DNA from: Myxococcales bacterium
GTDB lineage: Bacteria > Myxococcota_A > Polyangia > Haliangiales > Haliangiaceae
Length of the DNA: 33,504 nt
Direction: 5' to 3'
NCBI GenBank assembly: GCA_043752985.1
Contig: JAYUYE010000825.1
Span: forward strand, 1 to 33,504
Shown here: in pieces, positions 367 through 33,257 of the stretch
Position numbering within the stretch: position 1 is the stretch's first letter
Layout of the letters: the number at the start of each line of letters is the position of its first letter
The notes under the pieces: model-generated
Databases searched by the model: none
What the model saw: only the letters and a program-made list of their open reading frames with translations
What the model was told of the DNA's origin: nothing
Position numbers and translations under genes: made by a program

Positions 367-420
367 TCACCCGAGCCTGGAATGCAGGCCACAGCTACCC
401 CACGAGCATCCGCCCAGGAA

Positions 421-450
421 TTCCCATTAGCCTGGCAGCCCGTCTATGAT
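421..450 (+). promoter_or_regulatory. Putative sigma70-type promoter (TTCCCA-N18-TATGAT) upstream of the vWA/Cys-rich gene
   Basis: The gap after the ACAD stop contains a locally AT-richer island. TTCCCA at 421-426 is -35-like and TATGAT at 445-450 is -10-like (5/6 match to TATAAT). The -10 element ends 9 nt before ATG 460. This is a motif match only. Confidence 0.2.
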
Positions 451-459
451 GTCAGGCCT

Positions 460-17894: not shown

Positions 17895-18080
17895 GCTTGC
17901 GGGTCTCCCCGATCCTCGCCGTCCTTGAGCGGAGCTCCGAGCACGGCCCTGCGACAGGCGGCGAGGCAACCGGCGACCGACATCACGCTGCACGACCTCG
18001 CGGGTGACCAGGGACGCGACGGGCCGAATCCCGTGCTCCTCGTCGATATCCTCCGTCGCCTGTTCTGGACGCGCCGCCAG

Positions 18081-18109
18081 TCGACCCGGATCTGATCCGG
18101 CGCTATGTT
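18081..18109 (+). promoter_or_regulatory. Putative sigma70-type promoter (TCGACC-N17-TATGTT) with a perfect 7-1-7 palindrome in the spacer
   Basis: TCGACC at 18081-18086 is -35-like and TATGTT at 18104-18109 is -10-like. The palindrome CCGGATC-T-GATCCGG occupies 18086-18100. ATG 18118 lies 8 nt after the -10 hexamer ends. This is a motif match only. Confidence 0.2.
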
Positions 18110-18117
18110 GTGGGCGC

Positions 18118-19806
18118 ATGCGTGGTCTCTTTGTTGTTGCTGGGTTCCTGTTCACGACGGCTCTTGGATGTCAGCAGGCGAAGGAGAAGCCGAAGCCCGC
18201 GGCCACGACCGAGGCCGGGTCGAACGCGTCCGCTACCCCGGCGCGGGCGAAGTCGGAGCAAATCACGCCGCCCCTCGATCTCGCGAACCCGCCGATCGAT
18301 GCAGTGAGGACCTCGTCGGGTCTGATCTACAAGAAGCTGACGAACGTCCACGGTGGTAGCCCTGCGAAGCGCAACGACACCGTGATGATCACCTACACGG
18401 GCTGGCGGCAGGCGACGGGCGAGACGTTCTACACGAGCCGCGACAAGTCGGCGCCGATGCCGCTGCCGCTCGCGAACACCGCCCCCGGGTTCACCGAGGC
18501 AATGCAGCTCCTCAGGAAGGGCGAGAAGGCGATGCTTTGGCTGCCGCCGTCGATCGGCTACAAAGGTGGACCGCCGCCCGGCACCACGCCCGAAACGCTG
18601 GTCTATGAGGTCGAGGTCGTCGATATCGTGCCGGCGCCGGCGATTCCCCCGGACGTCGGGGTCCCGCCGGCGACCGCGCAGTCGCTGAAGTCGGGGATAA
18701 AGTACATCGTCGTTCAGCCCGGTACCGGCAGGGACAAGGCGCGCTACTTCGACACCGTCACGTTCAACTACTCGGCGTGGGATCACGAGGGCCGGATGTT
18801 CGACACGACCGAGCTGCGCAAGCGGCCCGCGACCGTGCCGCCATTCCGCCAGACCGCCGCGATGGAAGAGATCCTGACGTCGATGACCGCGGGGGAGCGC
18901 GCACGATTCTGGATGCCGTCGGAGCGTATGAACCAGGACGGCCGGCCGATGCCGGGAATGCCCGCCGGCCTCCTGACCTACGAGGTCGAGATCCTGACGA
19001 TCGAGAAGGGCAAGGAGCCTCCGCGCGTGCCCTCCGATGTCGCGGCGCCACCGGCAGGTGCGAGCAAGACCTCGAAGGGCGTGTTCTACAAGGTGCTCGC
19101 GAGCGGTAAGGGCGGAGCGAAGCCAGCTGGCAGCGACGTCGTGCGCGTCAACTACACCGGGTGGACCACCGACGGTCGGATGTTCGACTCGTCGGTGATC
19201 AAGGGCGAGCCGGCCGAGTTCTCGCTCGGCGCCGTGATCGTGGGCTGGACCGATGGCATCCCCGTGATGTCGGTCGGTGACAAGGTCCGGTTCTGGATCC
19301 CCGACGAGCTCGCGTACAAGGGATCGCCGGGCAAGCCGCAGGGCATGCTCGTGTTCGACGTCGAGCTCCTCGAGATCAAGCCGCCGCCACCCGTGGGGGC
19401 CGCGGACGGTCACGGTCACCATGGCGCCGACGAGAACCATCCGGCGCCGCCCGATGTCGCGGCACCGCCGGCCGATGCGAAGAAGAGCCCGCGCGGCGTC
19501 TCGTACAAGATCTTGAAGCCGGTCAAAGGTGCGGCCCACGCGGTCGCCTCGGACACCGTGAAGGTCCATTACACGGGGTGGTCGACCGATGGAAAGATGT
19601 TCGATACCTCGCGCAAGGGACCGCAGCAGCCGATCGAGTTCTCGCTCGGGCGCGTGATCGCCGGCTGGACCGATGGCATTCCGATGATCGGCGTCGGTGA
19701 GGCGGCGCGGTTGTGGATCCCGCAGGAGCTCGCATACCCGAATGGCGGTGGTCCGTCGGGCATGCTCGTGTTCGACGTCGAGCTGCTAGAGATCAAGAAG
19801 CAGTGA
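18118..19806 (+). CDS. Lipoprotein with four tandem FKBP-type peptidyl-prolyl isomerase domains
   Basis: ATG 18118 gives MRGLFVVAGFLFTTALGC (lipobox LGC). Four FKBP-like modules follow. Each is preceded by a P-x-DV-x-x-PP linker, and the modules end in VYEVEVVDI, TYEVEILTI, VFDVELLEIK and VFDVELLEIKKQ. Modules 3 and 4 are canonical (V.V.YTGW.TDG..FDSS, GW.DG...M.VG...R.WIP.ELAY). Confidence 0.85.
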   Translation: MRGLFVVAGFLFTTALGCQQAKEKPKPAATTEAGSNASATPARAKSEQITPPLDLANPPIDAVRTSSGLIYKKLTNVHGGSPAKRNDTVMITYTGWRQATGETFYTSRDKSAPMPLPLANTAPGFTEAMQLLRKGEKAMLWLPPSIGYKGGPPPGTTPETLVYEVEVVDIVPAPAIPPDVGVPPATAQSLKSGIKYIVVQPGTGRDKARYFDTVTFNYSAWDHEGRMFDTTELRKRPATVPPFRQTAAMEEILTSMTAGERARFWMPSERMNQDGRPMPGMPAGLLTYEVEILTIEKGKEPPRVPSDVAAPPAGASKTSKGVFYKVLASGKGGAKPAGSDVVRVNYTGWTTDGRMFDSSVIKGEPAEFSLGAVIVGWTDGIPVMSVGDKVRFWIPDELAYKGSPGKPQGMLVFDVELLEIKPPPPVGAADGHGHHGADENHPAPPDVAAPPADAKKSPRGVSYKILKPVKGAAHAVASDTVKVHYTGWSTDGKMFDTSRKGPQQPIEFSLGRVIAGWTDGIPMIGVGEAARLWIPQELAYPNGGGPSGMLVFDVELLEIKKQ

Positions 19807-20822
19807 GCGCTGCTCCGGCCGACGTGCTCGCGGCGTGGGGCTGGGACACGGCTGACGTCGCGCCGATCGACGGCGGTTTGATCAACGCGACGTTCGCGGT
19901 CCGCGTCGATGGTCACCCGCACGCGGTCCTCCAGCGGCTGCACCCGATCTTCGAGGCGAAGGTCAACCTCGACCTCGAGGCGGTCACCGCGCACCTTGCC
20001 GCGCACGACCTCATCACGCCGCGGTTACTCCACACGCGCGACGATCGCGCATGGGTCGAGCACGAGGGTCGCGTGTGGCGAGCACTGTCGTGGGTCCATG
20101 GAGCGACCGTGCATCGCGTGCCGGATCCGAGCTGGGCGGAAGCGGGCGGTGCGCTGGTCGGACGCTTTCATCGCGCCGTTGCAGACCTTCACCACGACTA
20201 CGCGTTCGCGCGCGCGGGCGTGCACGACACGGCGGCGCACCTCGCGCGACTCGCGGCACACGCCGGCGACCGCAGCGATCTCGAGGCAGCAGACCTCGCA
20301 GACGGGATTCTCGCCGCCGCCGCGCTGCTGCCAGCGATGCCCGATACGCCGCGCCGCCACTGCCACGGCGATCTCAAGATCTCGAATCTTCTGTTCGCAA
20401 CCGATCCGGTCCGCGCGGTATGCCTCGTCGATCTCGACACGCTCGGCCTCGGCTCGATGGCGTTCGAGCTCGGGGACGCGATGCGCTCGTGGTGCAACCC
20501 GCGTGGCGAGGACGCCGGTAGCGTGGTGTTCGACCTGCCGATCTTCGCGGCGGCGATCCGCGGCTTTCGTGCGGTCGCCGATGATCTGATCAGCGCAGAC
20601 GAGCGGAAAGCTGTCGTCGTGGGCCTCGAGACCGTGTGCATCGAGCTCGCGGCGCGGTTCGCAGTCGACGTTGTCCGCGACGAGTACTTCGGCTGGGACG
20701 CAGCCCGGTTTCCGTCGCGCCGTGCGCACAACCTCGTCCGCGCCCGCGGTCAGCTCGCTCTCGGCCTCGCGGTTCGCGCCGCCCGCGGCGACGTGCTCGA
20801 GATCGTTCACGGACGGGTCTGA
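19803..20822 (+). CDS. Aminoglycoside-phosphotransferase-fold (APH/choline-kinase/homoserine-kinase-II-like) small-molecule kinase
   Basis: GTG 19803 overlaps the FKBP gene's TGA (GTGA). The N-terminus has IDGGLINATFAV. Brenner catalytic motif HGDLKISNLLF and the metal-binding VDLDTLG are present. Confidence 0.75.
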   Translation: MSAAPADVLAAWGWDTADVAPIDGGLINATFAVRVDGHPHAVLQRLHPIFEAKVNLDLEAVTAHLAAHDLITPRLLHTRDDRAWVEHEGRVWRALSWVHGATVHRVPDPSWAEAGGALVGRFHRAVADLHHDYAFARAGVHDTAAHLARLAAHAGDRSDLEAADLADGILAAAALLPAMPDTPRRHCHGDLKISNLLFATDPVRAVCLVDLDTLGLGSMAFELGDAMRSWCNPRGEDAGSVVFDLPIFAAAIRGFRAVADDLISADERKAVVVGLETVCIELAARFAVDVVRDEYFGWDAARFPSRRAHNLVRARGQLALGLAVRAARGDVLEIVHGRV

Positions 20823-20846
20823 CGCACTACGACGGAGCGGTGCTAC

Positions 20847-20869
20847 CGGATCGAGGGGGCCTCGATCTG
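20847..20869 (+). terminator. GC-rich hairpin after the kinase gene (possible U-tract-less terminator)
   Basis: GATCGAGG (20849-20856), loop GGG, CCTCGATC (20860-20867). The stem can be extended by a G-U and a C-G pair. It lies 25 nt after stop 20822, and no T-tract follows. Confidence 0.3.
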
Positions 20870-20942
20870 AGGTCAGGGAGACTCGGATCGACGGTGCCGC
20901 GGTCAGCCTGAACCAGCGGAAACGCTTCGCCTTGCGCCAAGG

Positions 20943-23891
20943 ATGCGCTCTAATCACGGAATGCGTTCTCGTGGGTCGGCTGCGCTGGTCGGCAGCCTGT
21001 TTGTCGCCTCCGCCACCGCGCATGCGGTCGTGCCACCACACCACCTACGGCTCCCTGCCGAGACGCTGACCGCGCGCCCGGCAGCCGGGACCACGAAGCC
21101 GCTGCGGACGCACAGCGACGTGCGCTGGGGGGCCGTGAGCAGCGCCGGCTGGTCGAAGTTCACGGCGGCGGCCGGCGGAAAATGGAACGCCGCGCATGAT
21201 CGCGCGACCGGTGTCCCGTCCCGGATCTGGGGCTCGGGAATCTCGGTGCCGGGCGCCAACGCATCGGCGCCGATCTCCGAGCAGGCTGCCCGCCAGCTCC
21301 TCGCGGCGCACCTCGCGCTGCTCGCACCGGGCGCCGCCGCCACCGACTTCGAGCTCGTCTCCAACCGCGAGGATGCGGGCATCCGCACCGTCGGGTTTGT
21401 CCAGAAGCTCGGCGATCGGCGCGTCGTCGGCGGTCAGATCAGCTTCCGCTTCAAGTTCGACCGGATGATCGCGATCGGCAGCGAGGCGCTCCCCGACGTG
21501 ACGGTCAGCGTTCCGAAGTCACGATTGTCACGCGCCGCGGTGCGCGGTCGTGCGACCACCGAATTGCGCCGCGACCTCGCGCTCTTTACCGCACCGGTCA
21601 GCGAGCCCGGCGACGAGGTCGTGCTGCCCCTCGTCGGCGACGACGCGGTCCTCGGCTACCGCGTCGCGCGACCGATCACCATCGATGGTGGCGCGGAAGG
21701 GCGGTATCTCGCGTACGCCGATGTTGCCACCGGCGCGATCCTCGCCGTCCATCAGCTCAATGCGTTCGCGAGCGGCACCGTTCGCTACCGGACGGTGGAC
21801 CGTCATCCCGCGCGCGCGCGCCTCGACCGGCCGGCGTCGCGCACGCACGTCATGGTCCAGGGCACGCCGCAGACCACGCGAGCCGACGGCAGCGTCAGCT
21901 GGGGCGCGGATGTCAATCAGGCGGTCACGACGGCGGTGATCGGAGACCTCGTCAAGATCGTCAACAAGGCATCGTCAGACGGCCCCCTCGCGGTTGCCGA
22001 GATCGTGCTCGCCCCTGGCGGTGCAGCGGTGTGGGACGCGAGTGCGACGGCGCTCGATGACGCTCAGGTCAACGTGTTCATCAGCACGAACATCGTGAAG
22101 GAGTTCGTCGCTCGCGAGCTCGATCCGAACATGCCGAAGCTCGGCGAGCAGATGACGGCGAACGTCAACATCGGAAATGAGTGCAACGCGTTCTTCGACG
22201 GCAAGTCGGTCAACTTCTTCCAGTCCAGTGAGAAGTGCCAGAACACTGGCCTCCTCCAGGACGTGATCTTCCACGAGTTCGGCCACGCGCTGCACAGCGC
22301 GGAGATCATCGAAGGCGTCGGCAAGTTCGATGGCGCGATGAGCGAGGGCGCCTCTGACTTCCTCACCTCCCTCATCACGCGTGACTCGGGCATGGGCCGT
22401 GGCTTCTTCTACGGCGACACACCGCTGCGCGAGATCGATCCGCCGGACGAAGAGTACCGCTGGCCCGAGGACGTCAAGGAGATCCACCACACCGGCCTGA
22501 TCTACGCCGGTGCCATGTGGGATCTGCGCAAGGCATTGATCGCGCAGCACGGCGAGGCCGAAGGTATCCGGATCGTCCAGAAGCTCTACATCGGCACGCT
22601 ACGCCGCTCGATCGATATTCCGACCAGCCTCGTCGAGGCGCTCGTCGAGGACGACGACGACGGCAACCTCGAAAACGGCTCGCCAAACGAGTGCCTGATC
22701 CGCGAAGTGTACGGTCTGCACGGCGTGCGGACCGCGAGTGGCCAGGTCGCCGCGCCCGGCTCGATCGCCGAGAAGGCGGGTTCGACGCTCGTCCGCGTCA
22801 ACCTCACGGGGCTCACCACGCGGTGCACCAGTGACAAGGTCGACACCGTCACCGTCGAGTGGAAGCCGAGTGGCACCCCGATACCCACCGCGGGCTCGAC
22901 AGTCGCGAGCATCGGCGGCGACGGTGAGTACTACGCGCAGCTTCCGCTCGCGCGCGACGGCAAGGTTCTCTATCGCGCACGCGTGAAGTTCACGGATGGC
23001 TCCACGATGACGCTCGCCGACAACCTGGCGGATCCGTTCTACGAGCTCTATCAGGGCATCACGGTGCCGCTGTACTGCACGAGCTTCGAGACGGGCGACC
23101 CGTTCGCGGAGGGCTGGACCACCGGCACCACGAACGCGGCGGTCCCGTCACCGTGGGCGTGGGGTGAGGGCGCGGGCGGCACCACCGATCCACAGGTCGC
23201 GTACACCGGCACCAAGTTCCTCGCGCAGGAGCTCGGTGGTGACTACAAGCCGGGCATCGGCTCGTGGGTGAAGATGCCGCCGATCAACGTCGGCCGCTGG
23301 TCCGACGTCCACCTCCAGTACCGCCGCTGGCTTGCGACTGAAGACAGTCACTTCGATCAGGCGCGCGTCACGGTCAACGACAAGAAGGCGTGGATCAACA
23401 ACACCGCGAACACCGGTGACAGCAGCGCTCTGCACCACATCGATCGCGAGTGGCGCTTTCACGACGTGCCGCTGTCCGGCTACGTCGCCGGCAACGAGTT
23501 CACGGTCGGCTGGGACCTCCATGCCGACGACGGGCTCCACCTCGGCGGCTGGCAGCTCGACGACGTCTGCATCGTCGCGAACATCAACTCGGTCTGTGGC
23601 GACGGCGTTCGCACGCCGACCGAAGGCTGCGACGAAGGAGCCGCGAACGCCGACCGTCCCGATACGTGCCGGACCTACTGCCTCCGTCCGGCATGCGGTG
23701 ATCAGATTCTCGACACCGGGGAAGAGTGCGATCACGGCGATGCCGACGCGACCTGCTCTGCCGCGTGCAAGGAGCTCGAGCTCCCCACGCTCGGTGGTTG
23801 CTGCTCGACCGGTGGTGGTGGCGCGGGCTCGCTGGCGCTGGGAGCGCTCGTCGGTGGCCTGGTGCTGCGCCGTCGGCGCACGACGCGTTGA
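20943..23891 (+). CDS. Secreted thermolysin/fungalysin-like (M4/M36-type gluzincin) metalloprotease with MAM/InhA-like beta-sandwich, Myxococcus Cys-rich repeats and MYXO-CTERM tail
   Basis: The signal peptide is MRSRGSAALVGSLFVASATAHA; the start is ATG 20943 or ATG 20961. The zinc site is VIFHEFGHALH followed about 20 aa later by MSEGASDF. A DDDGNLENGSPNEC motif is present. The C-terminal beta-sandwich ends in GGWQLDDVCIV. Two CGDG....EGCD / CGD.....EECD repeats follow, then the tail LGGCCSTGGGGAGSLALGALVGGLVLRRRR. Confidence 0.8.
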   Translation: MRSNHGMRSRGSAALVGSLFVASATAHAVVPPHHLRLPAETLTARPAAGTTKPLRTHSDVRWGAVSSAGWSKFTAAAGGKWNAAHDRATGVPSRIWGSGISVPGANASAPISEQAARQLLAAHLALLAPGAAATDFELVSNREDAGIRTVGFVQKLGDRRVVGGQISFRFKFDRMIAIGSEALPDVTVSVPKSRLSRAAVRGRATTELRRDLALFTAPVSEPGDEVVLPLVGDDAVLGYRVARPITIDGGAEGRYLAYADVATGAILAVHQLNAFASGTVRYRTVDRHPARARLDRPASRTHVMVQGTPQTTRADGSVSWGADVNQAVTTAVIGDLVKIVNKASSDGPLAVAEIVLAPGGAAVWDASATALDDAQVNVFISTNIVKEFVARELDPNMPKLGEQMTANVNIGNECNAFFDGKSVNFFQSSEKCQNTGLLQDVIFHEFGHALHSAEIIEGVGKFDGAMSEGASDFLTSLITRDSGMGRGFFYGDTPLREIDPPDEEYRWPEDVKEIHHTGLIYAGAMWDLRKALIAQHGEAEGIRIVQKLYIGTLRRSIDIPTSLVEALVEDDDDGNLENGSPNECLIREVYGLHGVRTASGQVAAPGSIAEKAGSTLVRVNLTGLTTRCTSDKVDTVTVEWKPSGTPIPTAGSTVASIGGDGEYYAQLPLARDGKVLYRARVKFTDGSTMTLADNLADPFYELYQGITVPLYCTSFETGDPFAEGWTTGTTNAAVPSPWAWGEGAGGTTDPQVAYTGTKFLAQELGGDYKPGIGSWVKMPPINVGRWSDVHLQYRRWLATEDSHFDQARVTVNDKKAWINNTANTGDSSALHHIDREWRFHDVPLSGYVAGNEFTVGWDLHADDGLHLGGWQLDDVCIVANINSVCGDGVRTPTEGCDEGAANADRPDTCRTYCLRPACGDQILDTGEECDHGDADATCSAACKELELPTLGGCCSTGGGGAGSLALGALVGGLVLRRRRTTR
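23790..23888 (+). other. MYXO-CTERM-like sorting signal
   Basis: The last 33 residues are LGGCCSTGGGGAGSLALGALVGGLVLRRRRTTR: a Gly-Cys motif, a hydrophobic helix and an Arg cluster. Confidence 0.75.
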
Positions 23892-23897
23892 TCGCGC

Positions 23898-25472
23898 TCA
23901 GCTGCGCGTGGGGAGCCGCATCGTGAACGTCGAACCACGGTCAGGTTCGCTCACGATGGTGAGCGTCCCGCCATGCGCGACGACGAGCTGATTCGCGATG
24001 TACAAGCCCAGTCCGAACCCTCCGTAGTGCTTGCTCGGCACGGCCCGCTCGAAGCGACCCAGGATCCGATCGTGATCTTCCTTCGGTATACCGATGCCTC
24101 GATCGCGGACCGCCACCAGGGCGTCCCCCCCGTCGACCGACACCGCGAGCTCGATCGGTCGACGTTGCCCGTACTTGATCGCGTTCTCGATCAGGTTCGA
24201 AAGGACCTGGTCGATCCTGGAGCGGTCCATTTGCCCGATGATCGTTGCATCGCAGCCGGAGACCTCGAGCGTCGAGCCTGCCGAGGCGGCTAAAACTTCG
24301 TGACGCTCGACGACCTCACGGACCAGTGCGCCCAGGTCAACTCGTTCCACGTTGAGCTGCAGCCGGTCTGCCGCGTTCGCCTCGTCGAACGTGCCGACGA
24401 GGTCGATGAGCCGGTGCATCTGCTTGTACGCAACGGCCAGCTTCTTCGCCAGCCGGGGTTGCTCGGTGCCTTCGAGCTTGTCGACAGCGGCCATCGCCGC
24501 GTCCAGCTGGAGCCGCAGGGTCGTGAGGGGCGTGCGGAGCTCGTGAGACGCGATCAACAGAAACTCGTCTCGCATCGCGAGCGCTCGCGTCAATTCTGCG
24601 ACGAGCTTCTCGCGCTCCTCGGCGGCACGACGCCGGTCATTGATGTCTGTATTCGTGCCGATCCAGCGCAGGATCTTGCCGCGTGCGTCGCGCAAGGGGC
24701 GGACGCGCGTGAGGAACCATCGGAACTCACCGGATGCGCTGCGCAACGGGAACTCCATCTCGAACGGTTGCCCGCTCGCGAGGGAGTGGGCCCATCGGGC
24801 GGTCACTGCGTCGAGCATGCTCGGGTCGTGCACCGTGCGCCAACCCCAGCCCTGCATCTCCTCGAAGGCGGTGCCCGTGTACGCGTACCAGCTGCGGTTG
24901 TAGAAATCGATGGTGCCATCCTCACCAGCACTCCATGCGAGCTCGGGGAGGTTGTCTACCAGGTCACGGACCTGGCGTTCACTGTCCCGGATCGCAGCTT
25001 CCGTTGCTTGCTGCTCGGAGCGGATCTTGCGGACCGCGTCCTCGGTATCCACCCGGGCAGCGTGCAGCGCCTGCCGTGATTGCACGTGCTGGGTCACTTC
25101 GATGGCGGTCACGAAGACGCCCGTGATGCTGCCGCTGCTGTCACGAGTGGGCTGCCAGCTGAGCTGGAACCAGCAGTTGGTGAGTGTTCCTTCGCGCATC
25201 AGCTTGACCAGGGCCTCCCCGATCTCTTCGGGCTCGCCGGTGGTGTAGACGCGGTCGAGGGTGTGGATGACGGACTGTCCTGCAAGCTCCGGCATCGACT
25301 CGAGCATCGGTACGCCGATCTTCATCCGCCTGCTGGTCATCTGCTCGTGGTGCTCGTTGGAGAAGGCCACCACGTGGTCGGGCCCGTCGTAAATGACGAC
25401 GGCAAACGGCGCCGCCATCAGCATCCGTTCGAGGTGACTCTGATCGATGGTGGGTGTAGGCACGTGGGTCAC
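23898..25472 (-). CDS. Soluble sensor histidine kinase (PAS-PAS-HisKA-HATPase_c)
   Basis: GTG 25472-25470 overlaps the upstream gene's TGA (GTGA on the minus strand); ATG 25424 is an alternative start. No TM segment is present. There are two PAS-like modules (...WFQLSWQPTRDSSGSITGVFVTAIEVT; ...FRWFLTRVRPLRDARGKILRWIGTNTDIND). The H-box is LIASHELRTPLTTL, the N-box is NLIENAIKY, G1 is DRGIGIP and G2 is GGFGLGL. Confidence 0.85.
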   Translation of the reverse strand: MTHVPTPTIDQSHLERMLMAAPFAVVIYDGPDHVVAFSNEHHEQMTSRRMKIGVPMLESMPELAGQSVIHTLDRVYTTGEPEEIGEALVKLMREGTLTNCWFQLSWQPTRDSSGSITGVFVTAIEVTQHVQSRQALHAARVDTEDAVRKIRSEQQATEAAIRDSERQVRDLVDNLPELAWSAGEDGTIDFYNRSWYAYTGTAFEEMQGWGWRTVHDPSMLDAVTARWAHSLASGQPFEMEFPLRSASGEFRWFLTRVRPLRDARGKILRWIGTNTDINDRRRAAEEREKLVAELTRALAMRDEFLLIASHELRTPLTTLRLQLDAAMAAVDKLEGTEQPRLAKKLAVAYKQMHRLIDLVGTFDEANAADRLQLNVERVDLGALVREVVERHEVLAASAGSTLEVSGCDATIIGQMDRSRIDQVLSNLIENAIKYGQRRPIELAVSVDGGDALVAVRDRGIGIPKEDHDRILGRFERAVPSKHYGGFGLGLYIANQLVVAHGGTLTIVSEPDRGSTFTMRLPTRS

Positions 25473-27409
25473 GGACAGGGATCGGTGATCGCGCCGGGCG
25501 CGGGCACCGTGGGTACGCCATCGCGGAGGTAGCTCTCGAGAAAGCAGCCATACTGGTGTTTCACGCCGGGGCTCTGCCGATACAGATAGTGCGAGCTGAT
25601 AATGCCGTCGCCCGCGAACTGCACGACGACACGCGTCTTGCCGGCGCGGTTGCCCTTGACCGGGTACGGCAGCACGCCCTCGAGCCCGTCGATCGCGAGC
25701 GTGTCCTGCAGCGTGGGCCACACGGGCGTTCCGGCCTGCTCGTTGCCATACGCGAGCGCGCACGCGTCGTAGATCTCGTCAGGGAAGTTCTCGTCATCCT
25801 TGCCGACCGGCTCGTAGACGTGGCGTGCCGTCATTCCGGGCAGCGGGCGGCGGCCGACGCGGGCCATGTAGACGAGCGGATCGGCGATCTCCCAGCCGAG
25901 TGCGAGCGCGTCGAGTGCCGGATGGACGAACACCAGCGTCGCGTCATCGAGGCCGAGCGCGGTGCCGAGCAACGCGCGAGCACCGGGCACGAGGGAGGTC
26001 TGCAGGATCATCAGGTTCCAGAACCCGCCAGCGCCCGTCGGAACCAGCGCGCCGAACCGCGGCTCGACGGCGCCGACCATGTTCGTGTACATCCCTCCCA
26101 TCGACTGCCCGCCGAGCGTGAGTGCGGCCGGATCGAAGCGATGAACGTTGCCGGTCGGTGCGGGGACGCCGCAGCCGGCGAGCGTGGCGTGTGGGATCCG
26201 CAGTGCGAGGAGCGCGTCGAGGAACAGGCGCTGCTCGAACACACCCTGCTGGAACGTCGACGGGAACGCGGAGAGGTTGTTGATGTTGAGGTACGCGTAG
26301 TCGCTCGCGCCCGGCTGGCGTTCGGGGTTCACCGGCATCGCCGCCGAAGCTGCCGCGATCCCGTGCAGCGCGACGATGTAGCCGGGGCCCTTGCCGGGCT
26401 CGGGCATGTCAGCGGGCGTCGACGCGTAGCCGAGATCGACGAGACCGGTCGAGAGTCCGCCCGAGCCGTGAATGAACTGGTAGAGCGGCCAGCCCGCGGT
26501 CGGCATCGCGCGCTTCGGTAGCGTGATCGTCAGCGGGACGGTCAGCGTGCGCTGCATCTTGGGGACGTCGCTGCCGTCGAGCTCGAACCGCCCTTCGCTG
26601 TCGAACGGCGGCATGCCCTTCTGGAACTGCGGGAGCGTGATCGTGCCGCGGAGCTGACAGAACCCGTCGAGGGTTGCGCCACCTTCGAGCGTCAGCGCAT
26701 CGATCGTGGCCTCGAACGCGGCGCGGATGGCCTCGGACCGCGCGCGCGTGCGAGCGACCTCGTCGCTGGTCGTGAACACCGTCGCGGCGAGCACGTCGCT
26801 CTCGGCGATCCCGGCGGTGGCGAGTGCCGGCCACAGCGGCTCGTAGACCGCTGCTGCCCGGGAGCTTCGTACCGACCGGAACGACTCCGGTGGGGAGAAC
26901 TCCGGTGCGAATGCGGTGCGAATGACGTACGCGTACTGCGTGTTCGGCCGCAGCACGATGCCGGGGCGCGGCGCGAAGGCGACCAGGTCGCTCGTCACGT
27001 AGGGATCGGGCGGTAGTGTGGTCGCGACGATCGGGAACTGCGTTCCGAGCTCGGGCGACGCCGGATCGATATCGATCAGCATCGCGGCTGGATCGCCCAC
27101 GGGGATCAAATCCGTGATCGCCCGCTCGGGAACGGGCGCGGTGAATCGGAAGTAGGCGACGGGCATCACCGGCCAGCCCTTGCGGTCACCGACGGTCGTC
27201 AGCAGGGCATTGAGGATCGGCACATTGCGCGGGTTCGGGAACCCGGTCATGTCGGGCCCACCGGAGGCAGCGATCCGGAGGTCTGACGGAAACGGAAAGT
27301 TCCAGAACGTCGCCGACTCGGCGATCGAGCCCTCGAGGTCGAAGTAGACGGTGTGCGAGGGGGCGTCGTCGCCGCACGCGGAGAGTACGAGCGTGAGGGC
27401 GAGCAACAT
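25469..27409 (-). CDS. Predicted lipoprotein with alpha/beta-hydrolase (lipase/esterase-like) C-terminal domain
   Basis: The ORF spans 25469-27496. ATG 27409 gives MLLALTLVLSAC (lipobox LSAC), and the longer form adds an Arg-rich N-region. An oxyanion-type motif FIHGSGG and a nucleophile elbow GGQSMGG (G-x-S-x-G) are present. The N-terminal half has no motif I recognise. Confidence 0.6.
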   Translation of the reverse strand: MLLALTLVLSACGDDAPSHTVYFDLEGSIAESATFWNFPFPSDLRIAASGGPDMTGFPNPRNVPILNALLTTVGDRKGWPVMPVAYFRFTAPVPERAITDLIPVGDPAAMLIDIDPASPELGTQFPIVATTLPPDPYVTSDLVAFAPRPGIVLRPNTQYAYVIRTAFAPEFSPPESFRSVRSSRAAAVYEPLWPALATAGIAESDVLAATVFTTSDEVARTRARSEAIRAAFEATIDALTLEGGATLDGFCQLRGTITLPQFQKGMPPFDSEGRFELDGSDVPKMQRTLTVPLTITLPKRAMPTAGWPLYQFIHGSGGLSTGLVDLGYASTPADMPEPGKGPGYIVALHGIAAASAAMPVNPERQPGASDYAYLNINNLSAFPSTFQQGVFEQRLFLDALLALRIPHATLAGCGVPAPTGNVHRFDPAALTLGGQSMGGMYTNMVGAVEPRFGALVPTGAGGFWNLMILQTSLVPGARALLGTALGLDDATLVFVHPALDALALGWEIADPLVYMARVGRRPLPGMTARHVYEPVGKDDENFPDEIYDACALAYGNEQAGTPVWPTLQDTLAIDGLEGVLPYPVKGNRAGKTRVVVQFAGDGIISSHYLYRQSPGVKHQYGCFLESYLRDGVPTVPAPGAITDPCP

Positions 27410-27512
27410 CCGCCCACCGGGGTTCCCTCGCCGTGCGGTAGGTTTCGTTCTGGCAGCGCGGCGGACGAAACCTCGATCGGCGCGGCTCGGTCTCATTTCG
27501 CGGCAGTCTAGC

Positions 27513-28781
27513 TCAACCGGAGATGGTGCTGCGGGGTTTCCGTCGGCGCTGAGGTGTCGTGGCGCACGTCCGGACTCGGTCGAGGACGGTCAGCGCGAGC
27601 TGGGCGTCGTCGGGGACGAACTGGACACCGGAGGCGAACATCGACCGGTCCTTCGCGCTCACCGCACCGATCACGACGAGCTGCGCAGCATGCTCGACCT
27701 CGAGGCCGCGCGCATACATGCACAGCTCGAGTGCGTTCATCACGCCGCGCAACGACGCATCGATGAACACGAGGTCGGGATGATCGCGGTTGAGCTTGTG
27801 CGCGGCATCGGTGCCCTCGCTCGCGGTCTCGACCAGGGCCGCCGAGTACGCGCGCCGCGCGAGGCTCCACAGCCAGCGCGCCCGGGCCGTATCGTCGTCG
27901 ACGACGAGCACGCGGATCGAGCGCGAGTGCGTACCGACCCGCTCGATGATCGCGTCGACCTGGGACAGCACTTCCTTCGCGGATGGCGGCCGTGTGGTCG
28001 GTTGCTTCGCGAGCAGCCACTCGACGAGGTCCGAGAGATCGACCGGAAGATCGGTGCGAATGTCGGCGAGGCGGGGCGGCGGCTCGTGCGCGTGACCGCG
28101 CAGCTCGACCTCGCGATCATCGTCGGAGAACGGCGGTGTGCCGCGCGCGAGCTCGATCGCGATACAGCCGAGGCCGTACAGATCGATCGCCTCGGCACCC
28201 GCCGGATCGGTGGCTTCGACCTCACCGCGAACCACCTCGGGTGCACGGATCTGGCCGAGCGGGCCGAACGCGGGGACCTGGGACAGCGAGAGCCGCCCGA
28301 GGACCAGCCGGCCATCCGCGTCGGCCGAGATCGTGGCGCCGGAGATCTCGCCGATCGCGATCCCGCATTCGTGCGCACGAGTGACCGCAGCGATCAGCGT
28401 GCGCAGCGTCGCCAGGTACCTTTCGGCCGACATCGGAACGTCGAGCTGCGAGCGGAGGAGCGTCTGGGAGATCCGCTCGCCGACGATGTACTCGATGCCG
28501 AGGTGCTGCCCCATGCCGAAGATCTGGACCGCGCACGGATCGCGAACGGAAGCGCAGCGTCGCGCCTCGAGGATCATCGACGGCACTCCGGGATCGCGCC
28601 AGCCGAGCTTCAGCGCGACCAGGCGGTCGAGGATCATGTCGCGTGCTTCGAACACGATGCCAGTCTCGGTCCGCACGATCTCGTGGCGGACCGAGTACGT
28701 GCCCCCGACCACGTCACCGTGAGCGACCTCGGGGGTCGAGCTGTCCCGGTACCCCGGTGAGAGCTCCATCATCGCCTCCAT
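27513..28781 (-). CDS. Ser/Thr protein-kinase-like pseudokinase fused to a C-terminal receiver (REC) domain
   Basis: The ORF runs from TTG 28835; the likely start is ATG 28781, 28772 or 28769, and a GGAGG precedes the last two. The kinase fold retains VALK, the alphaC Glu, APE (IRAPEVVRG) and DLYGLGCIAIEL. The catalytic loop reads IAIGEISGATI instead of HRDLKPxNI, and DFG is replaced by GRL. The REC domain has VLVVDDD, DLVFIDASL and LVVIGAVS. Confidence 0.75.
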   Translation of the reverse strand: MEAMMELSPGYRDSSTPEVAHGDVVGGTYSVRHEIVRTETGIVFEARDMILDRLVALKLGWRDPGVPSMILEARRCASVRDPCAVQIFGMGQHLGIEYIVGERISQTLLRSQLDVPMSAERYLATLRTLIAAVTRAHECGIAIGEISGATISADADGRLVLGRLSLSQVPAFGPLGQIRAPEVVRGEVEATDPAGAEAIDLYGLGCIAIELARGTPPFSDDDREVELRGHAHEPPPRLADIRTDLPVDLSDLVEWLLAKQPTTRPPSAKEVLSQVDAIIERVGTHSRSIRVLVVDDDTARARWLWSLARRAYSAALVETASEGTDAAHKLNRDHPDLVFIDASLRGVMNALELCMYARGLEVEHAAQLVVIGAVSAKDRSMFASGVQFVPDDAQLALTVLDRVRTCATTPQRRRKPRSTISG

Positions 28782-28797
28782 CCTCTCACGCGCCGCC

Positions 28798-29400
28798 TCA
28801 CGATTCGAGCAGGCGCCACATGTACCAGGCAGCAACGCTGCGGAACGGCTGCCACGGTGCCGCGAGCTTGAGCATCCTGTCGGCCTCGGGAAGCGAGCGA
28901 AGCTTGAAATGGATCTGCATGCCCTTGCGCACGCCTAGATCACCGACCGGGAGCACGTCGGGGCGGGCGAGCGCGAACATCAGGAACATATCAACGGACC
29001 ACGGGCCGATGCCACGCACCGGCAACAGCATCTCGGAGACCTGGGCGTCGCTCAGCTCCGGAAGCTTCGCTGGCACGACCTTGGCCTCGACGACGTGACG
29101 CGCGAGATCCTTGATCGCCGCTGCCTTGGCGCCCGAGAGACCGGCGCCGCGCAGCGTGGTGTCAGGCGTCGCGAGGATCTCCGCCGGTTTCGGGAACCTG
29201 CGCTTCGGATAGAGATCGAGCACGCGACCCCAGATCGCATCGGCCGCCTTGGTCGACAGCTGCTGCCCGACGATCGCGCGCGCGAGCGACTGCACGGCGT
29301 CCTTCGTGGGCTTCATCGTTGGATGACCGTGTTTGTCGATCAGTGGCGCGAGGTGCACATCCGCCTTCGCGAGGTGCAGCACAGCGTCTGTCCAGTCCAT
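28798..29400 (-). CDS. HhH-GPD superfamily DNA glycosylase (DNA-3-methyladenine glycosylase II / AlkA-Mag-like)
   Basis: ATG 29400 is preceded by GAGGTG and lies 10 nt after the upstream stop. Motifs: IVGQQLSTKAADAIWGR, LRGAGLSGAKAAAIKDLA, the HhH motif LLPVRGIGPWSVDMFLMF, and the catalytic Asp context VLPVGDLGVRKG. Confidence 0.85.
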   Translation of the reverse strand: MDWTDAVLHLAKADVHLAPLIDKHGHPTMKPTKDAVQSLARAIVGQQLSTKAADAIWGRVLDLYPKRRFPKPAEILATPDTTLRGAGLSGAKAAAIKDLARHVVEAKVVPAKLPELSDAQVSEMLLPVRGIGPWSVDMFLMFALARPDVLPVGDLGVRKGMQIHFKLRSLPEADRMLKLAAPWQPFRSVAAWYMWRLLES

Positions 29401-29410
29401 CACCTCGACC

Positions 29411-30589
29411 CTAGCACCGCTCGATGATCGCGGCGCTGCCGAGGCCTGCCGCACCGCTGACGGCGATCGCCGCGTAGCGCGCACCGCGGCGCTCGAGCTC
29501 GTCGAGCGCATCGACCACGAGGACCGCGCCGGTCGCGCCGTACGCATGACCGAGTGCGATCGTTCCACCGTTCGGATTGAGGCGGTCGTGGTCGAGATCG
29601 AGGTCGCGCATGAGGCGGACGCACAGTGCAGCGAACGCCTCCGCGAACTCGATGATCGCAAGGTCGGCGGCGCGCAGCCCGGCCTTCGCGAGCGCGCGCT
29701 CGAGGGCGGTCTGCCCGGCGGTCAGCATCGTCACCGGATCTCCGGCGCAGGTCGCGGTCGCGAGGATCCGCGCGCGGGGCGCGAGGCCCGTGCGGTCGGC
29801 CGCCGCTCGATCACCGAGGACAACGAGCGCGGCAGCATCGGCGAGGCTCGGCGACGAGCCGCGGGTGTGGATGTGGCGGATCGCTGCGAGCTGCGGGTGG
29901 CGGGTGAGCGCGATCGAGTCCTGGCCGAGCTCGCCGAACAGCGGCGGCAGCACTGCGAGCTCGTTTGGGCTCGGCGCGTAGGCAACGTTCTCGTCGTGAT
30001 CGAGCACGATGCGATCACCGGCACGGTACGGGATGATCGAGCGCCGGCGCTGCTCGGCATGTGCGCGCCGCGCCTTGTCGCGAGTCGCAGCCGCGTAGCG
30101 ATCACACGCATCGCGATCGATGTGCTCGAGCGTGGCGACGAGATCGGCGGCGACGCCCATGTGGATGGTGCCGGCCGCGGCCATGACGTCAGGATCCGCA
30201 TACAGTGGGCCGTGATCGGAGAACGTCGGCACCCGCGATACGCTCTCCACGCCGCCCGCGATGATCAACGTTGCGTCCCCGGCGCGTACGCGCGCAGCGC
30301 CGAGATTGATCGCATCGAGGCCCGACGCGCAGAACCGATTGATCGTGACGCCCGGAATCGCGACATCCCAGCCCGCGAGCAGCGTCGCCGACCGCGCGAG
30401 GTTCGCACCTTGATCGCCGGTCTGTGTCGCACAGCCGAGGATCACGTCGTCGGGGAGTGCGCCCGCGAGTCGAGAACCGAGCACATCGAGCAAGCTGCCG
30501 ACGAGACGCACCGGCGGAACGGCGTGGAGCGCGCCCTTCGGTGAGCCTTTGCCGCGTGGCGTCCGGATACCCGCGAGGACGAACGTCAC
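29411..30589 (-). CDS. Thiolase (acetyl-CoA C-acyltransferase family) with atypical catalytic motifs
   Basis: GTG 30589-30587 overlaps the upstream TGA (GTGA); ATG 30604 is an alternative start. The N-terminus is VLAGIRTPRGKG. The nucleophile motif NRFCASGLDAI and the His motif NPNGGTIALGHAYGATG are present. NEAF is replaced by AEAF, and CIGGG is replaced by VSGAAG. Confidence 0.85.
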   Translation of the reverse strand: MTFVLAGIRTPRGKGSPKGALHAVPPVRLVGSLLDVLGSRLAGALPDDVILGCATQTGDQGANLARSATLLAGWDVAIPGVTINRFCASGLDAINLGAARVRAGDATLIIAGGVESVSRVPTFSDHGPLYADPDVMAAAGTIHMGVAADLVATLEHIDRDACDRYAAATRDKARRAHAEQRRRSIIPYRAGDRIVLDHDENVAYAPSPNELAVLPPLFGELGQDSIALTRHPQLAAIRHIHTRGSSPSLADAAALVVLGDRAAADRTGLAPRARILATATCAGDPVTMLTAGQTALERALAKAGLRAADLAIIEFAEAFAALCVRLMRDLDLDHDRLNPNGGTIALGHAYGATGAVLVVDALDELERRGARYAAIAVSGAAGLGSAAIIERC

Positions 30590-32037
30590 GCAGGCATCCA
30601 GCACGCGTGCGTGCCGCTCGCGATCCGCTCGGGCAGCGCGATCCGTGCGATCGGCCCGGCCGCGATGTCACGCGCATCGAACACGTGGCACTCGGAGACA
30701 TCGCGGCGAACGTCCGACACGAACGTGATCGCGTAGCCGTCGTCCTCGGCCCGCGCGCCGATCCGCGGTGCCATCGCGGTCTCGCTCGCGAACACGTCGG
30801 TCGGCCACTCGAACCGCTGGACGGTGCCGGTCTCCAGATCGAGGCGCCGCAGCCCAGTGAACAGGAACCAGCCCGGCTTCGCGGTCATCGTCCAGGCGTA
30901 GCGATGACGGCGACCACCGACGCGCCCGTTGATCGACGGGAACTCGCTGATCTCGTCGAACAGCCGCTCCTCGCGAACCTTGCCGGTCGCGAGGTCGAGC
31001 CGCCAGCGATGCGGGCGCGCTCCCATCGAAGCGACATCGACCAGCTTCTTGAGCCCGGCCCAGGGACCGTCCGCGGGGTCAGGGGCCGGCATCGGATCGG
31101 TCTGGAAGTAGCCGTCGACGACGATGATGTCGCCGTCTTCATAGGCGTTGATGAAGTGGAGCACGTAGGTGGGCGCGGCCTCGAACCAGCGCGGCGCACC
31201 ACCCTTGCGCGGCACCACGCCGAACCGCGTGGGTAGCTGGGGATACCAGCGCGGTCGATGGACGCCCTTCTCGAGCAGGTCGGGATCCCAGAACAGCGGG
31301 AAGTCGCCGATGATCGCGAAGTTCTCGGTGAACGCGATGTCGTGCGGTAACCGCGAACCAGGCAGCGCGACCGGCTGCTCGCGCACGAGCGCACCGCTTC
31401 GATCGAGGACGCCGAACGAGAAGTAAGGCGCCTTCGTGCCATACCCGAACACGAGCAGCTCGCCGGTGGTCTCGTCGAGCTTGGGATGTGCGGACACCCC
31501 GAACCCACCGAACCCGGCGGACCATGGGAGCGGGCCCGCGCCCTCGAGAGTCACCGGGTCGTGCGCGTAGAGCTCGCCGCACTGATAGAAGCTGGTCAGT
31601 GCGCGACCCGCGTGCACGGTGACGTCGGTCGATGATGCGTCCTTCATCCGGCCGCGAGCGCCCCAGCCGTCACGCACGGACTTCGCGGGCGCCTCGATGA
31701 TGCCGGCCCACAGCGGTGCGCCGGCCGCGAGCTCGTCGGCGAGGCCGCGAGTCTGGATCATGCGGTTGCGATACGACGCACGGCCGCCAGCAAACCGGAT
31801 CGCGTGCAACATGCCGTCGCCGTCGAACGGGTGATAGCGCCCGATCGCGGGGAGCAGCGGATTCTCGGTGTTGCGCAGGTAGCTGCCCGCGAGGTCGTCG
31901 GGGATCCGGCCCTCGATCACGTCGAGGTCGTCGGCGTCCCACTCCGTGAGCTGCGGCCGCCACGCGCCGGTGCGGTACGGATGATCGTCGTCGGCGGGCA
32001 GCTGATTCGCGTAGCTCTTGACGGTGCGGACGACCAT
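30586..32037 (-). CDS. Carotenoid/stilbene cleavage oxygenase family (RPE65/CCD-type non-heme iron dioxygenase)
   Basis: ATG 32037 gives MVVRTVKSYANQLP. Motifs YLRNTENP and HPFDGDGMLHA are present. All four iron-His contexts are present: SAHPKLD, LPHDIAFTENF, VLHFINAYE and GTHACW. Confidence 0.85.
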   Translation of the reverse strand: MVVRTVKSYANQLPADDDHPYRTGAWRPQLTEWDADDLDVIEGRIPDDLAGSYLRNTENPLLPAIGRYHPFDGDGMLHAIRFAGGRASYRNRMIQTRGLADELAAGAPLWAGIIEAPAKSVRDGWGARGRMKDASSTDVTVHAGRALTSFYQCGELYAHDPVTLEGAGPLPWSAGFGGFGVSAHPKLDETTGELLVFGYGTKAPYFSFGVLDRSGALVREQPVALPGSRLPHDIAFTENFAIIGDFPLFWDPDLLEKGVHRPRWYPQLPTRFGVVPRKGGAPRWFEAAPTYVLHFINAYEDGDIIVVDGYFQTDPMPAPDPADGPWAGLKKLVDVASMGARPHRWRLDLATGKVREERLFDEISEFPSINGRVGGRRHRYAWTMTAKPGWFLFTGLRRLDLETGTVQRFEWPTDVFASETAMAPRIGARAEDDGYAITFVSDVRRDVSECHVFDARDIAAGPIARIALPERIASGTHACWMPA

Positions 32038-32051
32038 GACGGAACGCTCGC

Positions 32052-33257
32052 TCACGCCGCCGCGACAATCAAGCAGGCCGCGGTCGTACCGCTGCCGCCG
32101 ATGTTGAGCATGCCAAACGTCGAAGCGCCGCCGACCTGCGTCGCGCCGGCCCGGTTCGTGACCTGCTGCGCACAGTCGACGAGCATCCGCACGCCGGTCG
32201 CGCCGACGGGATGACCTCCGCCGATCAGACCGCCGCTCGGATTGATCGGCAACGCTCCCGTGCGCTCGTGCGTTCCGGCCTCGATTGCCTGCCACGCCTG
32301 GCCCGGCGCCGTCAGGCCGAGGTGATCGATCGCGACGTACTCCGTGATCGTGAAGCAGTCGTGGACCTCGATGCCCGAGAACGCGCGTGCATCCGGCAGC
32401 TCCGCGCGGCGAAGCGCGTCGACGACGCTCTGCTTGAGATGAGGCAAGAGGTGCGTCGCGTTGTCGGTGTGGCGGGCGAGCTTCGCTTCGAGGCCAAGGC
32501 CGGCGGTGCGGTGTCCCCATCCCGTGATTCGCGCCTTCGGTCCATGGTGCGCGGCGGCGCCCTTCGCGGACGCCAGGATCACGGCGGCCGCACCGTCGGT
32601 GACCTGCGCGCAATCGAACCGGCGTAGCCGGCCCTCGACGATCGGGTTGCCGTCGTCGGGGGCGAAGCTCGTATCGCTCCACGTCCAGTCGCGGGTCTGC
32701 GCGTTCGGGTTCGTCCGCGCATTGCCGAAATTCTTCTTCGCGATCGCCGCGAGGTGCGCTCCATCGAGGCCCCAGCGTTCGGCGTAGGCATCACCGATCC
32801 GCGAGAACATGTGCGGCCACAGGTAGCGCGCGGTCTCGCCCTCGTGACCGACCCACGCGGCGGCCCCCATGTGACGCGCCGCGAGCTCGCCGGGCACATT
32901 GCGCTCCTGCTCGACCCCGATCACGAGCACGGTGTCGTAGCGGCCGGCCTCGATGTCGGCCATCGCCGCGAGGATTGCCATGCTGCCCGATGCGCACGCA
33001 GCCTCGTGTCGGCTCGCGGGTACGCCCCACAGATCGGAGCGCACGGTCGCCGGCATCGCGCCGAGGTGCGCCTGCCCGGTGAACAGCTCGCCGAAGGCGT
33101 TGCCGACGTGGATCGCCTCGATCGCGGACGCCGGGAGCCCTGCGGCGGCGAGCGCACCGTCGATCACCTCGCCGATCGCGGCGCCGATCTCGAGTCCTTC
33201 GCGGCCCAGATTGCGCGCGAAGTCGGTCTGGACACCACCGAGGACGAACACGCTCAT
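32052..33257 (-). CDS. SCP2/SCP-x-type thiolase-like protein (lipid-transfer-protein-type thiolase)
   Basis: ATG 33257 overlaps the upstream TGA (ATGA, 33254-33257). The N-terminus is MSVFVLGGVQTDFARN. Present are the nucleophile motif HEAACASGSMAI, the SCP2-thiolase HDCF motif (EVHDCFTITE) and NPSGGLIGGGHPVGATG. Confidence 0.8.
   Translation of the reverse strand: MSVFVLGGVQTDFARNLGREGLEIGAAIGEVIDGALAAAGLPASAIEAIHVGNAFGELFTGQAHLGAMPATVRSDLWGVPASRHEAACASGSMAILAAMADIEAGRYDTVLVIGVEQERNVPGELAARHMGAAAWVGHEGETARYLWPHMFSRIGDAYAERWGLDGAHLAAIAKKNFGNARTNPNAQTRDWTWSDTSFAPDDGNPIVEGRLRRFDCAQVTDGAAAVILASAKGAAAHHGPKARITGWGHRTAGLGLEAKLARHTDNATHLLPHLKQSVVDALRRAELPDARAFSGIEVHDCFTITEYVAIDHLGLTAPGQAWQAIEAGTHERTGALPINPSGGLIGGGHPVGATGVRMLVDCAQQVTNRAGATQVGGASTFGMLNIGGSGTTAACLIVAAA

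Follow-up and report, generated by a model that had tools for sequence, protein, structure and literature searches.

The 33,504-nucleotide (nt) stretch of DNA analysed here (the window) is contig JAYUYE010000825.1, positions 1 to 33,504 of the forward strand, of assembly GCA_043752985.1 from a Myxococcales bacterium, and one of its minus-strand genes encodes a protein in which a Hanks-type kinase-like domain is followed by a CheY-like receiver domain. By fold and homology the protein is a member of the Hanks kinase and CheY superfamilies, whose defining catalytic features its sequence fails. It is conserved in soil myxobacteria (Kofleriaceae), and its sequence indicates that it probably signals by binding and not by phosphotransfer. 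The explanation that is favoured here, as a reasonably probable one, is that this pseudokinase with an atypical receiver is a non-catalytic scaffold or allosteric partner that arose from active kinase-receiver ancestors. The gene and its main parts are listed below; residues are numbered from M1 at ATG 28781, as in a preliminary description of this DNA, and coordinates were verified by re-translation.

27513..28781, minus strand: pseudokinase-receiver coding sequence from the list of open reading frames (ORFs), 422 amino acids (aa) from ATG 28781, with the stop codon at 27513-27515.
27942..28715, minus strand: Hanks-type kinase-like (pseudokinase) domain, residues 23-280 (phmmer, Foldseek, Pfam).
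27915..27941, minus strand: inter-domain linker, residues 281-289, more variable and with a predicted local distance difference test score (pLDDT) of 68.
27558..27914, minus strand: CheY-like receiver of (beta-alpha)5 form, residues 290-408 (DSSP of the model, PDB matches, Pfam).

The kinase fold is recognisable, as the preliminary description had stated. Searching the PDB with phmmer aligns residues 16-274 with PknE (2h34, E=3.9e-14) and PknB (1mru, E=3.5e-11), a kinase homology far above chance level. The Pfam profile Pkinase (PF00069) reaches 33.9 bits (cutoff 31.7) and matches only residues 179-273 of the C-lobe, because the N-lobe and the catalytic core are degenerate. Structure prediction, which had been proposed as a check, was run with AlphaFold2 (AF2) on a family alignment of 44 sequences and gives a confident two-domain model (mean pLDDT 87.2, predicted template modelling score (pTM) 0.82). 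The pTM suggests that the two domains may form one rigid unit with a defined inter-domain arrangement. Foldseek comparison with the PDB returns Stk1, PknB, PknA and PknE at E-values of 8e-17 to 5e-15, with target template modelling scores (TM-scores) of 0.64-0.82.

The motifs on which kinase chemistry depends are kept in part and replaced in part, as listed here. Residue counts and entropies, here and below, refer to 170 aligned non-identical members of the family.

28653..28676, minus strand: remnant of the Gly-rich loop, VRTETGIV where active relatives have GxGGMGxV; G41 alone is kept (alignments).
28608..28610, minus strand: K58, the VAIK lysine (here VALK), kept; K in 169/170 members.
28566..28568, minus strand: E72, the alphaC glutamate (ILEARR), kept; E in 170/170 members.
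28332..28361, minus strand: remodelled catalytic loop IAIGEISGAT, with HRD replaced by I-G-E, Lys by S147 and Asn by T150 (alignments with PknB and with active relatives).
28266..28310, minus strand: former DFG block RLVLGRLSLSQVPAF, with R163-L164-S165 at the DFG position; G162, R163 and S165 are each found in 170/170 members.
28236..28244, minus strand: APE motif (residues 180-182), kept; E182 in 169/170 members.

Every string quoted in the preliminary description lies where it had been placed, including those for the VALK Lys, the alphaC Glu and the APE motif, the string DLYGLGCIAIELARGTPPF and the receiver strings, and GRLS is located at 28287-28298 on the minus strand. In the phmmer alignment with PknB, GIAIGEISGATI sits under GIIHRDVKPANI and LGRLSLS sits under VMDFGIA. 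The alignment with active relatives gives identical equivalences, in which His corresponds to I143, Arg to G144, Asp to E145, Lys to S147, Asn to T150, and D-F-G to R163-L164-S165. The two alignments thus agree with the earlier reading of the HRDLKPxN loop as IAIGEISGATI, with Asp changed to Glu, Lys to Ser and Asn to Thr, and with the claim that the catalytic machinery is gone, since the DFG Asp is lost, as are the Lys and Asn of the catalytic loop and the Gly loop. The DFG motif had been read as GRL; its loss is upheld, while the register has to be moved by one residue, from G162-R163-L164 to R163-L164-S165. The Gly-rich loop has a single Gly, G41 of VRTETG, as had been noted, and the second Gly of the P-loop is Thr in the window protein.

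These replacements are characteristic of the whole family. In the catalytic loop, G144 and S147 are invariant (170/170 each), T150 is found in 168/170 members, and position 145 is D in 131, E in 37 and V in 2. Outside the loop, the alphaF Asp (D200), the subdomain XI Arg (R264) and H137 are also found in 170/170. Intact HRD or DFG motifs elsewhere in the protein, which would have contradicted the preliminary description, were looked for by alignment and by a regular-expression scan of the whole protein; none was found, and the scan detected neither a canonical catalytic loop nor D[FLYMW]G nor GxGxxG. H-x-D occurs only twice, as HGD (residue 21) and HPD (residue 334), and neither string is at the catalytic-loop position. 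Because the DFG Asp and the catalytic-loop Lys and Asn are gone and the Gly loop is unusable, the domain is classed as a pseudokinase, and we infer that it is catalytically inert. The DFG Asp is missing in 170/170 members and the HRD Asp is Glu in the window protein, and selection on this domain is nonetheless purifying (see below).

The C-terminal domain is a receiver with an acidic pocket and an Asp at the phospho-acceptor position, in agreement with the preliminary description. In the model, its secondary structure elements are beta1 (290-294), alpha1 (298-311), beta2 (316-320), alpha2 (323-333), beta3 (337-341), alpha3 (350-359), beta4 (367-371), alpha4 (376-379), beta5 (387-389) and alpha5 (395-408). 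Searched in isolation with phmmer against the PDB, the receiver segment matches MtrA (E=1.4e-4), PleD (E=3e-4) and FrzS (E=1.2e-3). The Pfam profile Response_reg (PF00072) scores 27.8 bits for the window protein, under its cutoff of 30.2, and is recorded for many family members. The positions that make up the receiver switch are as follows.

27891..27899, minus strand: acidic residues D295-D296-D297 (VVDDD) at the end of beta1; D295 in 151/170, D296 in 163/170 and D297 in 167/170 members.
27759..27761, minus strand: D341, the phospho-acceptor position (DLVFID) where beta3 ends, kept in the window protein; D in 143/170 members.
27666..27668, minus strand: G372 at the conserved Thr/Ser position (CheY T87); G in 170/170 members, S/T in 69/80 active relatives.
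27609..27611, minus strand: D391 at the conserved Lys position (CheY K109), in FVPD; D/E in 165/170 members, K in 71/80 active relatives.

D391 is taken as the equivalent of the receiver Lys because YVVK of CheY aligns with FVPK of the active relatives and with FVPD here. The preliminary description had given the K-P motif as FVP; the Lys is indeed missing, and the residue in its place is the Asp that follows those three letters. The phospho-acceptor itself is replaced in 27/170 members (R 9, S 5, N 3, K 3, A 3, G 2, H 1, E 1), and members with a replaced D341, often by Arg or Lys, are otherwise conserved. The receiver quintet is incomplete, and D341 is dispensable in 16% of members. With Gly at the switch Thr and Asp at the switch Lys, the receiver is therefore atypical and, as far as these residues indicate, probably works without Asp phosphorylation.

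The gene is not in decay. Across GTDB species genomes, one scan found 58 loci with full-length or partial orthologues at 55-86% identity, nearly all of them labelled as Kofleriaceae, Haliangiales, Myxococcales or Deltaproteobacteria metagenome-assembled genomes (MAGs), and intact full-length orthologues are present in 54 of these loci, in species-level genomes (Kofleriaceae/Haliangiales MAGs). A protein search with the 304-aa C-terminal part as query returned at least 485 proteins at E<=1e-10, whose named source organisms all belong to Kofleriaceae/Haliangiales and which carry database names such as "serine/threonine protein kinase", "CheY-like chemotaxis protein", "response regulator" and "hypothetical protein". 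The motif evidence speaks against the literal use of the kinase, CheY-like and response regulator names for this clade. The ratio of nonsynonymous to synonymous substitution rates (dN/dS) has a median of 0.18 overall, 0.17 in the kinase part and 0.18 in the receiver part (Nei-Gojobori method, 47 pairs at 78-97% identity). Low dN/dS in both domains, together with near-invariant altered motifs, points to purifying selection in which the former active-site residues are themselves constrained.

Conservation is unevenly distributed along the protein. Entropy is lowest in receiver alpha3 (0.21 bit), residues 158-172 (0.29), the APE motif (0.32) and alphaF (0.40), and it is also low in receiver beta1-alpha1 (0.46), beta2-alpha2 (0.49) and the catalytic loop (0.68), with an overall mean of 1.03 bits. 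It is highest in the hinge (2.0 bits) and in receiver beta4, alpha4-beta5 and alpha5 (1.6-1.9 bits), so that the canonical output face, alpha4-beta5-alpha5, is among the least conserved parts of the protein.

The origin of the protein can be traced among its more distant relatives. A family profile searched against 1.84 billion representative proteins gave 747 matches at E<=1e-30. The nearest representatives (P0121-P0131, P0139, P0142, P0144 and P0154) likewise have no catalytic motifs, and under approximately 220 bits the matches are proteins of ~410-460 aa that match both domains and have intact GxGxxG, VAIK, HRDxKPxN, DFG and APE. Motif states were re-scored by regular expression and mafft; some DFG losses under hmmalign were alignment shifts (P0149, for example, has DYG). 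The re-scored counts by mafft are these.

Active two-domain representatives, of 80: HRD Asp 79, catalytic Lys 77, catalytic-loop Asn 79.
Active two-domain representatives, of 80: receiver D57 74, S/T87 69, K109 71.
Degenerate representatives, of 14: catalytic Lys 0, D57 7, S/T at the T87 position 4.
Degenerate representatives, of 14: at the K109 position, K 1, R 9, D/E 2.

In a neighbour-joining tree, 14/14 degenerate sequences fall in one clade beside the active ones. P0131, at the base of the degenerate clade, keeps HRDLRPEN and has lost both the DFG motif and the receiver Asp. A second search, with an active member as seed, found at least 787 proteins with Pkinase and Response_reg, whose named members come from Polyangiales, Sandaracinaceae, Myxococcales and "Myxococcota" MAGs; among those examined, the catalytic loop and DFG are intact in 119/119 and the FxxK Lys in 116/119. 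Because at least 787 proteins of ~430 aa share it, the kinase-then-receiver layout is common in Myxococcota, and the view that the architecture is unusual finds no support. What is special to the clade of the window protein, judged by its motifs, is the joint degeneration of both domains.

The active Myxococcota kinase-receiver proteins (for example P0156, P0382, P0309 and P0318, from Polyangiales, Sandaracinaceae and Myxococcales MAGs) resemble the window protein in domain order and in their length of ~410-460 aa. Homology to them spans both domains (170-220 bits with the family profile, positions ~18-413), and the receiver alpha3 motif ELCMYxRG is common to both groups. Unlike the window protein, they have GxGxxG, HRDxKPxN and DFG, a canonical receiver and a different gene context. 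The best reading of these comparisons is that the window protein would represent the Kofleriaceae branch of an older degenerate clade, which stands beside a large active kinase-receiver family and would have descended from active kinase-receiver proteins.

The gene context of three active relatives was examined (L063 5150-7317, L065 4991-7236 and L066 5004-7278, from Polyangiales, Myxococcales and Sandaracinaceae MAGs). Each adjoins an Asp/Glu racemase gene, genes for TPR and double-FHA proteins then follow in 2/3 of these loci, and PAS kinases are sometimes nearby. This arrangement suggests that the active family has a conserved module. Since these three relatives lie in a different gene context, death in situ of those particular genes is unsupported.

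A mechanism that would accommodate these observations begins with a cytoplasmic signalling protein that would have lost its two phosphotransfer chemistries and kept both folds. The invariant remodelled cleft would lock the kinase fold in a single conformation, and this fold and the alpha1-alpha2-alpha3 side of the receiver would together present fixed binding surfaces. Through these surfaces the protein might act as a scaffold or allosteric modulator of its partners; active Ser/Thr kinases, or the substrates of such kinases, are plausible candidates. Near-invariance of the remodelled cleft and of receiver alpha1-alpha3, set against a variable alpha4-beta5-alpha5, argues for fixed binding surfaces over a phospho-switch, and a scaffold or allosteric role would follow from this pattern. 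Several observations weigh against such a role. The family retains K58, E72 and an acidic position 145 (D 77%, E 22%), and the cleft is among its most conserved segments; it is not obvious that a pure scaffold would need such conservation, which would suit ligand binding or unusual catalysis just as well. In the window protein neither the acidic pocket nor D341 has been lost, and D341 is present in 84% of members, so Asp phosphorylation may be possible. Gene neighbours are kept in only about half of the loci and point to no partner, and the tree behind the proposed descent is a neighbour-joining tree with a midpoint root and without support values.

The preliminary description had proposed a phosphorylation-controlled pseudokinase, and a switch of this kind, in which phosphorylation of D341 by a histidine kinase such as the PAS kinase at 23898-25763 alters the interactions of the pseudokinase, is considered unlikely, though it is the most serious of the alternatives. 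The window protein has D295, D296 and D341, the acceptor is shared by 143 members, the second gene downstream, also on the minus strand, encodes the PAS-HisKA-HATPase_c kinase, and the receivers of active relatives are canonical, with PAS histidine kinases as neighbours in some cases. However, the T87 position is Gly without exception, the K109 position is Asp/Glu in ~98% of members, 27 otherwise conserved members have another residue, often Arg or Lys, in place of D341, conservation is lowest on the usual output face, and the PAS kinase is missing from this position in the other 57 loci. The proposal is weakened by these observations and is not supported. It is less likely still that the protein is an atypical enzyme, in which an invariant cleft (K58, E72, H137, D/E145, S147, T150, R163, S165 and S167) performs CASK-like metal-independent phosphotransfer, SelO-like AMPylation or SidJ-like glutamylation, or binds a ligand. 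The low entropy of the catalytic loop and of residues 158-172 relative to the protein as a whole, the retention of K58, E72 and an acidic position 145, and the repurposed kinase folds exemplified among the references of PMC10211241 are all compatible with such an enzyme. Yet the second P-loop Gly is Thr, both metal ligands are gone, position 145 tolerates D, E and V, and there is no additional catalytic residue to point to; moreover, a locked conformation or a protein-binding surface would likewise be expected to conserve the start of the activation segment.

A related and similarly doubtful idea is that the cleft (H137, G144, D/E145, S147, T150, R158, G162-R163-L164-S165, S167, K58 and E72) is a new functional site for a ligand or for non-kinase chemistry, which together with the atypical receiver and the basic C-terminal tail would make up an undescribed signalling module specific to Kofleriaceae, in place of a passive scaffold. 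That the gene is decaying, or is a functionless annotation artefact, is very improbable. The Pfam scores are weak, with Pkinase just over and Response_reg just under its cutoff, but such an origin is refuted by conservation, namely intact ORFs in 54 species-level genomes and at least 485 proteins, and is at odds with the dN/dS of ~0.18, the many invariant columns and the confident AF2 model. A non-catalytic scaffold or allosteric partner thus remains the preferred reading.

Among characterised proteins, PknB, PknE and PknA of M. tuberculosis and Stk1/StkP have the same fold at ~25% identity and are the nearest solved structures. Unlike the window protein, they are active, have all catalytic motifs and lack a receiver domain. 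They are membrane-anchored with extracellular sensor domains, which contain PASTA repeats in PknB, Stk1 and StkP. A bacterial pseudokinase domain occurs in M. tuberculosis MviN. In PMC6791715, which cites Perez et al. 2008, 11 of 99 M. xanthus serine/threonine protein kinases are reported to be pseudokinases. Fusion to a receiver is not reported for bacterial Hanks-type pseudokinases in the literature covered. FrzS of M. xanthus (PDB 2gkg, 2i6f) is similar to the window protein in having a CheY fold with part of the conserved quintet gone. FrzS is without the phospho-acceptor Asp and is fused to a coiled coil, whereas the window family mostly keeps the Asp, loses the Thr and Lys, and has a pseudokinase as the partner domain.

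STRADalpha and CASK have lost the DFG Asp and metal ligands, keep the Lys-Glu pair, and act as allosteric partners or metal-independent kinases. Their likeness to the window protein is one of analogy only, as they have no known specific homology to it and a different domain context. DivL, a pseudokinase of the histidine-kinase type, reads out the state of DivK, a response regulator (bioRxiv 10.1101/812529). In concept the DivL-DivK pair is comparable to the window protein, in that a dead kinase is linked to a receiver and the signal flow is reversed; unlike the window protein, DivL has a histidine-kinase fold instead of a Hanks fold, and its receiver is separate and phosphorylatable. Searches of the full-text literature brought up no account of a receiver fusion in a Hanks-type pseudokinase; two key surveys lie outside the coverage, so that an earlier mention is possible.

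Bacterial pseudokinases and pseudo-receivers are each known already and have been little studied beyond a few models. New here is a whole clade that lacks the kinase motifs and part of the receiver switch residues and is still under purifying selection. This clade offers a natural test case for how phosphotransfer proteins become binding or allosteric modules, with a large active family for comparison. It also raises a second question, namely whether the kinase and receiver activities are functionally coupled in the active family.

Two conserved segments lie outside the domains, at the ends of the protein.

28740..28760, minus strand: N-terminal motif SPGYRDS (family consensus PPG[FY]R[DE]S), before the kinase fold (alignment of 170).
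27516..27557, minus strand: basic C-terminal tail TPQRRRKPRSTISG (family RRR[KR]PR[TS]T[IV]SG-COOH), predicted to be disordered.

The N-terminal motif is well kept (G10 in 159/170, R12 in 154/170 and S14 in 155/170 members), with pLDDT 88 at residues 11-20. The basal degenerate relative P0131 also carries it, as APSGYRDS. The start of the protein is likelier to be ATG 28769, giving 418 aa, because GGAGG-N5-ATG precedes it and because orthologues open with MELSPGYRDS and have upstream in-frame stops; in these, an in-frame stop often lies 3-14 codons 5' of the MELSPGYRDS-type start. A longer TTG start at 28835 would overlap the 3' end of the upstream gene. At 28767-28781 (minus strand), the conservation of the upstream peptide PGTCGACSKR reflects the 3' end of the glycosylase gene in another frame.

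The tail is conserved at R414 (164/170), R417 (161/170), T419 (163/170), S421 (162/170) and G422 (170/170), with pLDDT <50 at 414-419. The final four residues are TISG or TVSG in 117/120, and active relatives are without a basic tail ending in SG. The tail could serve as a docking motif, or else as a substrate or pseudosubstrate segment. Binding of DNA or another polyanion by the receiver was considered and rejected: alpha1 (+4) and the tail (+5) are basic, yet the receiver has a net charge of -3 and the kinase domain of -12, and intramolecular packing explains the basic segments equally well.

The gene lies in a same-strand run with very short gaps, made up of an RPE65-like oxygenase, a thiolase, an HhH-GPD glycosylase, the target, a lipoprotein and a PAS histidine kinase. 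Three of these genes are considered further.

28798..29400, minus strand: HhH-GPD DNA glycosylase, the upstream neighbour, ~16-28 nt before the target start (Pfam HhH-GPD E=1.5e-15; start ATG 29400).
25469..27496, minus strand: lipoprotein, the downstream neighbour, ~650 aa, 16 nt past the target stop (lipobox LSAC, GQSMG; likelier start 27409).
23898..25763, minus strand: PAS-PAS-HisKA-HATPase_c histidine kinase, two genes downstream, between the lipoprotein and an M36-like gene in this window only.

The neighbourhood gives no clear functional lead. The glycosylase is directly upstream on the same strand in 23/52 assessable loci, the lipoprotein is directly downstream in 23/47, and an M36-like protease gene takes the place of the latter in 14/47. 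Sequence comparison of the lipoprotein with Pfam, PADLOC and the PDB gives no match; its GQSMG resembles a nucleophile elbow, and it may be an unclassified secreted hydrolase. None of the other 57 loci has the PAS histidine kinase at this position, and this lack of synteny speaks against it as the cognate histidine kinase of the receiver. Scanning 23500-33000 for promoters and terminators detected no terminator-like or sigma-70-like sites, which says little at 68% G+C. A role as a defence kinase (PD-T4-6, MADS or BREX) was also rejected, as the PADLOC matches to PD-T4-6 (E=1e-30), mad6 and PglW represent generic kinase similarity, and both the partner genes and the catalytic residues are absent. 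The NCBIfam model MAD6 scores 49.5 bits against a cutoff of 460, and NCBIfam PglW is also far under its cutoff.

Other genes in the window can be described briefly. Genes for a multi-FKBP isomerase, for an APH-type phosphotransferase and for an M36-like/DUF4215 protein of 982 aa form a cluster at 18004-23891 on the plus strand; many Kofleriaceae loci keep this cluster near the target, usually on the strand opposite to it. At 7518-9167 (plus strand), ~20 kb from the target, lies the gene of a HAMP-SpoIIE (PP2C-type) Ser/Thr phosphatase. Two large adjoining ORFs at 382-6920 (plus strand; 1116 and 1063 aa) contain MopE-type metal-binding repeats, the second with a weak FGE-sulfatase match, and two TonB-dependent receptor genes follow them at 8918-13319. 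Finally, the RPE65-family carotenoid oxygenase ORF at 30586-32682 (minus strand) has ~240 aa extra N-terminal to its Pfam match and may be an over-long ORF call, and thiolase genes at 29411-30604 and 32052-33257 flank it.

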